Source: a virus (taxonomy: Duplodnaviria; Heunggongvirae; Uroviricota; Caudoviricetes). Taken from it: a stretch of 10,267 nucleotides of DNA. The notes under the pieces are model-generated. The model did no database searches and was not told where the DNA came from. It worked only from the letters and a program-made list of their open reading frames with translations. Below, in pieces: positions 9,261 to 10,267 of the stretch. The position numbers and the translations under genes are program-made. The stretch is taken from the IMG/VR virus record IMGVR_UViG_2660238499_000007, positions 1 through 10,267 of that record. One strand, given 5' to 3'. The first letter of the stretch is position 1. Each line of letters begins with the position of its first letter.

Positions 9261-9452
9261 ATGACCGATACCAGCCTGATTCCTGAGAAAGAAGTGATGA
9301 ACAAGCTCGGTGTTTCATCACGTCAGACAATCTGGAACTATACCAAACGGCACGGATTTCCGAAGCCAGTCAGAACCCACCCCAAATCATACCTTCGTGA
9401 AGCTGTTGAAGGGTGGATTCTTAACGGTGGCGTTAATCAGAAATGCTCCTGA
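9261..9452 (+). CDS. AlpA/Xis-family excisionase or transcriptional regulator (small winged-helix DNA-binding protein)
   Basis: 63 aa; GGAGA RBS; LIPEKEVMNKLGVSSRQTIWNYTKRHGFPKPVRTHPKSYLREAVEGWI fits the AlpA/phage excisionase pattern (L..EV....G.S..TI....K.G.FPKP.......W....V..WI). Its 3' end overlaps the integrase 3' end by about 20 bp on the opposite strand. Confidence 0.7.
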   Translation: MTDTSLIPEKEVMNKLGVSSRQTIWNYTKRHGFPKPVRTHPKSYLREAVEGWILNGGVNQKCS

Positions 9453-10190
9453 TGTGCCAGAACAATTTATCAGCGTGAAGCTCATACGCTTTGCGCTGAG
9501 CCTCTATCCAATCGAGTTTATTGTATACGGACATTATCCCGCCAAGTTCATGACCGAGCATTCGCTCAGTAACATGAGGCTCGACATTCATCTCGGACAG
9601 CCGTGTAACAAGCGTTCTTCTGAAATCATGTGTTCGCCAGTAACCTAGGTCCATCCCTCCCCTTATTCTATTTACGAATCGGTTGGCTGCAGCGATGCTG
9701 ATCGGTTTGTTTATGTCTTCTCCAGGGAAAAGAACATCATTGTACGTTGTCATGGCCTTTTCGAGGAAAGGCTTAATTTGTTCGAAGATTGGACGGCGGA
9801 TAACATTACCCATCTTGCTATGCTCTTTCGGTACGGTCCATACGTTGTCCAGCAGGTCAAATTCTGTCTTTATTGCCAGCCTAAGTTCTGAGAGCCTCGC
9901 CCCCACAGCATAAGCATCTGATGAAGTAGCTTATTTGACGTAGACGCACGGCTTCTTTCAATAGCAAGCCAAATCTTAGCCAGTTCGTGATACGACAGTA
10001 CCCGATCCCCTACCTCAGCGCGGGAGCCGAAGTCCCTTGGTTGGATGCTCATAATTGCGCAACTATCTATCAACTGACGCCGCATGCACCAACTAATTGC
10101 TGATCTTAGTTGACTTAGCACCTGATGTAGCCCCCTGAAACACCAGACAGTAGCTGTATCTCCAGATAAGAGATAGGCTTGAATATATGT
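9433..10190 (-). pseudogene. int: Tyrosine integrase (phage/P4-like family), frameshifted and N-terminally truncated
   Basis: The C-terminal catalytic region (9433-9906) carries GARLSEL (box I Arg), HDFRRT (box II) and LGHELGG...SVYNK (His and Tyr nucleophile region). The preceding 80 aa (9870-10121, ..LSYHELAKIWLAIERS..) are in another frame; the shift maps to a C5/G5 run at about 9900-9904. That frame closes at a stop at 10191-10193 with no open upstream minus-strand frame, leaving about 250 aa versus 340-420 expected. Confidence 0.7.
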
Positions 10191-10267
10191 CTAACACTAA
10201 CACCAATATTGAGATGACCGGGATCCTGTTAGGGCAAGAAGTCCGTAAACGTAAAACTCCTCAGGAG
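10187..10267 (+). CDS. Possible 5' end of an unidentified plus-strand gene running off the window
   Basis: ATG at 10187 opens MSNTNTNIEMTGILLGQEVRKRKTPQE... to the window edge; no clear RBS; could equally be non-coding. Its position coincides with where integrase homology is lost. Confidence 0.15.
   Translation, partial: MSNTNTNIEMTGILLGQEVRKRKTPQE

Follow-up and report, generated by a model that had tools for sequence, protein, structure and literature searches.

The sequence considered here, which we call the window, is a stretch of 10,267 nucleotides from a virus of the Caudoviricetes (positions 1 to 10,267 of IMG/VR record IMGVR_UViG_2660238499_000007). Its right-hand end holds a small intact gene, xis (9261..9452, plus strand), predicted to encode a 63-aa excisionase-like protein of the AlpA/HTH_17 type, which faces the remains of an integrase gene, int, on the minus strand. 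The two genes converge and overlap by 20 nt at their 3′ ends (9433..9452), the int stop codon lying at 9433-9435 on the minus strand. The segment of int that encodes the catalytic domain (residues 238/239-392 and the stop codon; 9433..9899, minus strand) is out of frame with the part upstream of it, a middle segment in the original frame that encodes residues 164-237 of the core-binding region (9900..10121, minus strand). Where the two segments meet there is a run of five C residues (9900..9904; G5 on the coding strand), which shifts the frame at codons 236-238 relative to a run of six. The 5-bp sequence GCACC at 10118..10122 is the left copy of a target-site duplication, and the last 145 nt of the window (10123..10267, plus strand) are the left end of a 1336-bp insertion sequence (IS) and comprise an imperfect terminal inverted repeat that starts TGATG and the first part of orfA.

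The integrase assignments come from profile searches and a codon map. The 157-aa fragment encoded by the catalytic segment scores 50.6 bits against Pfam PF00589 (E 2.4e-13; cutoff 27.1), and the segment also matches the PHROG 1 integrase profile (E 1e-30), as does the 83-aa open reading frame at 9870-10121 that covers the middle segment (E 1.4e-4). In alignment to the intact 392-aa protein, R239, H328-x-x-R331, H354, and Y363 are all encoded within 9433-9897. There is no single uninterrupted int frame, given the IS at codon 164 and the loss of one nucleotide at codons 236-238. The DUF4102 domain (Arm-DNA-bind_3, PF13356) is absent from the window and is found on separate N-terminal fragments (contigs L012 and L013) and on intact homologues.

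The remainder of the window shows decay of the same sort. The cI, cro, cII, kilA-N, xis, tailspike, and acyltransferase genes are intact. The last two stand side by side, an Acyl_transf_3 membrane acyltransferase at 384-1553 (plus strand) and a tailspike with a P22-type head-binding domain at 1589-3883 (minus strand), and as a pair they resemble the O-antigen-modifying cargo of P22/Sf6-like phages. An exact search of a protein collection with the translations of these two open reading frames, from their listed start codons, returned no match. Identity of this part of the remnant with the Shigella flexneri oac1b prophage was considered and rejected, since oac1b sits at torT and is accompanied by an HK022-like integrase.

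Other genes have been cut short. The O replication protein is reduced to 167 aa (276 aa when intact, as in L010) and abuts the mnt/arc-type repressor gene and the P22-type tailspike; within window positions 4217-4237 the mnt stop (4217), the stop of the truncated O (4225), and the switch in homology (4236/4237) follow one another. This join implies that a large deletion inside the prophage took away the remaining replication genes along with those for lysis and morphogenesis, and no replication-helicase, lysis, or head gene was found in the window. RecT is represented by a 111-aa open reading frame (7741-8076, plus strand) whose match to the 198-position RecT profile is confined to positions 4-76; a second internal truncation, here in the early-left region, is the probable cause.

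As for the site of integration, the start of sbcB carries the attachment core TTTCACGATTACG in the reference loci and in L013; neither the window nor the 10-kb flanks in L004 and L019 contain it. Searches for tRNA and tmRNA genes and for Rfam families returned none in the window. In L004 (SRR18191150) an IS66-family transposase (9929-10742) lies to the left of window position 287, in place of the sequence that window positions 1-286 share with L019. This marks one more IS event, specific to a lineage, at the opposite side of the remnant.

An insertion sequence at codon 164 of int

Homology to the integrase ends at 10122-10124 (Q163/V164), so that 162-163 of its 392 residues are missing. The initial annotation had recognized an N-terminal truncation, correctly, and had put its extent at 100-150 residues and the end of homology at about 10190. 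What lies there is a TAG stop codon (10191-10193), the first in the int frame and some 22 codons into foreign DNA. The insertion junction that it had suspected at about 10190 is genuine and is formed by an IS3-family element, with its position at 10122/10123; likewise, the plus-strand open reading frame it had pointed to is real, its ATG at 10187 being the start of the orfA of this element (RefSeq places the start at the ATG at 10214). Positions 10123-10267 are 98.7-100% identical to elements annotated as "IS3 family transposase" in 111 E. coli genomes.

A full copy of the IS elsewhere (L002, 2502-3837) measures 1336 bp and is bounded by imperfect terminal repeats TGAT...ATCA, and RefSeq annotates full copies with a transposase that has a programmed frameshift. 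The orfB product scores 201.7 bits against the NCBIfam model for the IS3 family (NF033516; cutoff 160), and the copy in L020 carries the Pfam domains HTH_Tnp_1 and rve. The best subfamily matches are to IS2 TnpA (198.8 bits; cutoff 229) and IS2 TnpB (399.1 bits; cutoff 597). As both scores fall below their cutoffs, the profiles argue for an IS3-family, IS2-like element that is related to IS2 and distinct from it; ISEhe3 is a guess at its name, and we leave the element unnamed. With IS2 it shares the programmed frameshift between orfA and orfB, the TG...CA termini, and, at the int insertion, a 5-bp duplication. It differs from IS2 in scoring below the subfamily cutoffs and in having duplications of 15-16 bp at 7 of its 10 other complete copies.

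The left junction in the window reads ...GCACC|TGATGTAGCC, which on the coding strand is IS|GGTGC TAAGTC…. The window ends 145 nt into the IS, and the right-hand junction was read in other samples (L012-L015). On the coding strand L012 reads ...GGCA GGTGC|TGATCTTGACC or, over a longer span, …GCAAGGCA GGTGC|TGATCTTGACCC…, and it includes 221 nt of the IS with 0 mismatches to the copy in L002. The pentamer GGTGC occurs once in the intact int and is duplicated across the pair of junctions formed by the window and L012.

The reciprocal product can also be predicted from the window side, as int(1-164) followed by read-through of the reverse-complemented right end of the IS, and we derived it for target duplications of 3, 4, and 5 bp. 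The 5-bp version, …RRARQV+LILTRHFRTAFVS (177 aa), has an exact match in a public protein collection (P0050, from contig L012), and the predicted N-terminal integrase fragment falls inside the protein cluster represented by P0003. A duplication of 5 bp is what is expected of the IS2 subgroup (PMC10045372). The gene order in contig L013 is yoeI-plaP-tsuA-tsuB-sbcB-int(1-164), up to the junction, where the contig stops; NCBI labels this int fragment Shigella flexneri. Two metagenome contigs also carry sbcB-int(1-164) and end at the same junction. Because the reciprocal junctions share the 5-bp GCACC, the event began as a simple insertion, which split int at codon 164.

The left junction of the window recurs, identical, in L005-L009, L019, and L020. 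It was not found, as an exact sequence, in complete E. coli genomes, GTDB species representatives, or JGI metagenome contigs, and a right-junction pattern with a variable gap had no match in the GTDB representatives. Short-read contigs with the window sequence all break inside the IS. We infer that the genome from which the window came would still carry the N-terminal half of int directly past the IS. An N-terminus in frame within or just after 10190-10267, which the initial annotation had entertained, does not fit these junctions, as it lies beyond the 1336-bp IS.

One might instead suppose that two IS copies recombined in the genome of the window, by deletion or inversion, with the result that the N-terminus of int no longer lies beyond the IS at 10123. 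Contig L020 speaks for this: it crosses the full 1336-bp IS without a target duplication, its IS is a hybrid of two variants, divergent in the 3′ part from about position 981 onward, and to the right it is flanked by GGCATGTAGCTCG..., as is an IS copy in a different tyrosine recombinase gene (L024, strain 81). However, L020 is a short-read metagenome contig assembled over a multi-copy repeat, for which a chimera is at least as likely, whereas the reciprocal junction with the 5-bp duplication exists in L012 and three more contigs end there beside sbcB. The join in L020 may thus be an assembly chimera or an IS-IS recombination in some genomes; for the window itself we consider recombination between IS copies unlikely, and prefer the simple insertion. 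Beyond the IS, L020 (1-6360) encodes a DNA methylase, a SIR2_2-like protein, and a DUF87 ATPase, and resembles a defence island.

The other complete copies of this IS deserve a few words of their own. Duplications of 15 bp flank the copies in L002, L003 (4217-5552), L021 (1609-2944), and L022, and duplications of 16 bp those in L024, L025, and L027; the copy in L023 has a 5-bp duplication, and those in L026 and L028 have none. The 15-mer duplicated in L003 occurs once in the intact tailspike gene of the window (3696-3710), which represents the empty site, and the empty site of L024, reconstructed with a single 16-mer, is found at 100% identity in other genomes. The two size classes lie about one helical turn apart. 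In the literature, IS3-family duplications measure 3-5 bp; duplications that fall into discrete sizes, near 5, 15-17, and 25 bp, are on record for IS1202 and the eukaryotic IS481EU, and discrete classes are also known from some IS481 members (PMC10045372). That an IS2-subgroup lineage uses two discrete classes of duplication, 5 bp and 15-16 bp, is a tentative reading to which we would give rather less than even weight. If it is true and undescribed, this IS would offer a model, tractable in E. coli, of a DDE transpososome that chooses between two geometries of target capture. The 15-16-bp duplications at the other sites are the only point of wider interest that the locus holds.

Integrase genes of different types hold 3 of the 11 IS insertions examined (window position 10123; L023, 1250-1507; L024, 1-150 and 1488-1636). 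This could reflect a preference for such targets or the tolerance of insertions in the DNA of mobile elements.

A one-nucleotide deletion before the catalytic arginine

In alignment to the intact allele (L001), the minus-strand int of the window has C5 at 9900-9904 where L001 has C6. In coding-strand orientation the tract lies in TGG GGG GCG (codons W236-G237-A238), immediately 5′ of the catalytic R239. An exact match to the C6 context was obtained in 529 complete E. coli genomes, and one to the C5 context in a single genome (EM03-18-08; L010). Given C6 in so many complete genomes, the C5 of the window is a real deletion of one nucleotide, two codons before Arg239, and the frameshift that the initial annotation had proposed at 9900-9904 is borne out.

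EM03-18-08 carries the short tract on a different allele, with two further indels relative to the window, and several of its other genes are annotated as frameshifted; on these grounds its C5 may be a sequencing error of the long-read homopolymer type.

That one complete genome with C5 looks like such an error could be taken to mean that the C5 of the window is a homopolymer miscall as well, and its IS junction no more than a chimeric contig end. We regard an artefact of this kind as very improbable. Independent assemblies (NCBI, Logan, and ENA) contain 35 contigs that encode exactly the 157-aa frameshifted product of the window. Of six contigs examined, five have the C5 tract together with the identical IS junction, and the remaining one shows a 1-nt difference at its end. 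The recurrence of the junction in the seven contigs named above argues in the same direction, and the same allele exists in both a C5 and a C6 version, as would be the case for a real polymorphism.

The G tract is also frameshifted on another int allele (P0033; 6 member sequences), which makes it a mild hotspot of slippage; nothing points to a regulatory function. More generally, the sbcB-type integrase is very often broken; among the homologues (L010, L011, and P0001-P0090) there is an IS100 truncation in strain EC3 (L011) in addition to the G-tract frameshift of P0033, and partial int fragments labelled Shigella flexneri number in the hundreds in the protein clusters.

The convergent excisionase and integrase genes

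The small gene that faces int is transcribed together with the early-left (pL-side) genes. Its product is 47% identical to the Xis of phi24B (E 4e-19) and matches PHROG 66, "excisionase and transcriptional regulator" (E 1.9e-8). Against Pfam AlpA it reaches 17.8 bits, under the gathering score of 21, and it has no match among NCBIfam profiles; the profile evidence for the label "AlpA" by itself is weak. The gene has the same length and position as one annotated as AlpA family in mEp234 and F349, and in the mEp234 record the small gene is noted as similar to the phi24B excisionase.

Window positions 8800-10124 are about 98% identical to a module present in 1305 of 5426 complete E. coli genomes, in 270 of them with coverage of 80% or more of the query. 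The RefSeq annotation of this module is [quoted passage not shown]. In an intact example (L001; NZ_AP045773) a 63-aa regulator (4462-4653, plus strand) converges on a 392-aa integrase (4634-5812, minus strand) that adjoins sbcB. The overlap of 20 nt is found in L001 (4634-4653), in mEp234 (L016, 2134-2153), and in the Stx2 phage F349, and the convergent layout is shared by L001 and L016-L018. In phi24B, whose Int is 57% identical to the intact protein, int (236-1405, plus strand) and xis (1389-1571, minus strand) overlap by 17 nt.

The initial annotation had described the convergent genes and their overlapping 3′ ends accurately, and had called the arrangement unusual, suggesting a rearranged or inverted int segment. 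There is some reason to expect another order. P22 has its int and xis genes co-oriented. Lambda has the same co-oriented layout (PMC2951348). However, the orientation and the 20-nt overlap of the window are those of intact prophages and viable phages at about 98% identity, and phi24B is laid out alike; an inversion of int relative to xis is very improbable. The convergent, overlapping arrangement is the native architecture of phages of the phi24B/2851/mEp234 type.

Published work on related modules agrees with this. The inverted int of phi24B has its own promoter, outside the control of CI, and the adjacent Xis has been validated by experiment (Fogg et al. 2011, PMC3064807). In KplE1, HK620, and Sf6, too, integrase and recombination directionality factor are uncoupled (Panis et al. 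2010, PMC2951348).

The nearest published modules compare with the window as follows. Phages 2851, 1717, Stx2a_F349, and mEp234 have its gene order, orientation, and overlap, with about 98% nucleotide identity over 8800-10124; they differ in that their int is intact (1179 nt, 392 aa), whereas that of the window has an IS at codon 164 and a 1-nt deletion. In these sbcB-integrating lambdoid phages the attP, "type 2851", corresponds to a site in the 5′ end of sbcB. The Stx phage phi24B (vB_EcoP_24B) resembles the window in having a P4-like integrase with a DUF4102 arm domain and an int directed inward and converging on a small HTH excisionase; it has another attachment specificity, whereas the window is of the sbcB/2851 type, carries int as a pseudogene, and is a phage remnant. 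The KplE1/HK620/Sf6 modules (IntS/TorI) resemble the window in the uncoupling of int from the directionality factor and in its transcription from a promoter of its own that overlaps attL (PMC2951348), but they belong to other integrase and directionality-factor families and attach at a tRNA gene (argW).

Order of events and what the remnant means

Which lesion came first can be read from contigs that carry one without the other. L019 and L020 have the same IS junction as the window together with C6, and over 862 nt they differ from it by 0 mismatches and one 1-nt gap. The allele with the IS and C6 is found on 3 contigs, and its C5 form on 35. When C6 was restored in silico in the window, the resulting products, of 229 and 217 aa, both had exact matches in a public collection, and the contigs that encode them are L019 and L020. 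As the same allele exists with the IS junction and an undeleted tract, the IS insertion is the earlier event, and the frameshift occurred later in a gene that was already dead.

The least probable reading is that the G tract is a switch (by phase variation or programmed frameshifting) for integrase expression, and we reject it: although its frameshift on a second allele (P0033, 6 members) suggests recurrent slippage, a tract of six nucleotides is shorter than one would expect of a contingency locus, C6 stands in 529 complete genomes against C5 in one, and all of the C5 carriers examined also have the IS in int, which leaves a switch nothing to control.

With high confidence, we explain the locus as an int gene that was split by an IS and then frameshifted, in a decaying prophage of the sbcB type. 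On this reading it is where the integrase lies in a lambdoid/P22-like prophage that uses sbcB as its integration site, in an E. coli/Shigella lineage. By type its integrase goes with those of phi24B, 2851, and mEp234, which are P4-like tyrosine recombinases whose arm-binding domain is DUF4102. In phages of this type int has a promoter of its own beside the attachment site and is transcribed into the interior of the prophage; it therefore meets the excisionase gene tail to tail.

Two steps account for what is seen in the window. In the first, a 1336-bp IS2-like element of the IS3 family entered codon 164 and duplicated 5 bp (GCACC), and the arm-binding N-terminal 164 residues, still beside sbcB, were cut off from the rest of int. 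In the second, later and within a sublineage, one G was lost from the G6 tract two codons 5′ of Arg239. With the arm-binding domain separated from the core-binding and catalytic domains, and the catalytic domain out of frame, we infer that no active Int would be made. Lacking any possibility of a functional Int, the remnant would be unable to excise on its own and would be inherited vertically. The immobilized element envisaged in the initial annotation thus gains support from a dead integrase, IS-split and frameshifted, and loss of excision is what such a gene would lead one to expect.

The locus is of a known kind: it is a case of ordinary prophage decay that has left an integrase pseudogene, split by an IS and then frameshifted. 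In Shigella and E. coli, 11-24% of interrupted genes, depending on the species, carry a second inactivating mutation in addition to an IS (Hawkey et al. 2020, PMC7373316). The int of the window is one more example of these IS/indel pseudogenes, with no substantial difference from them.

For annotation, we recommend that the right-hand end of the window be recorded as a single integrase pseudogene, split and frameshifted, followed by the end of an IS; it is neither a short integrase nor a rearranged module, and the junction is not a novel one. Similarly, convergent int and xis genes in phages of the phi24B/2851/mEp234 type should not be flagged as anomalous. The locus adds another documented prophage that was grounded by an IS and then eroded by a secondary indel, and here the order of the two events is resolved. 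Because the remnant keeps intact repressor, excisionase, tailspike, and acyltransferase genes, it may still influence immunity to related phages, or the cell surface.
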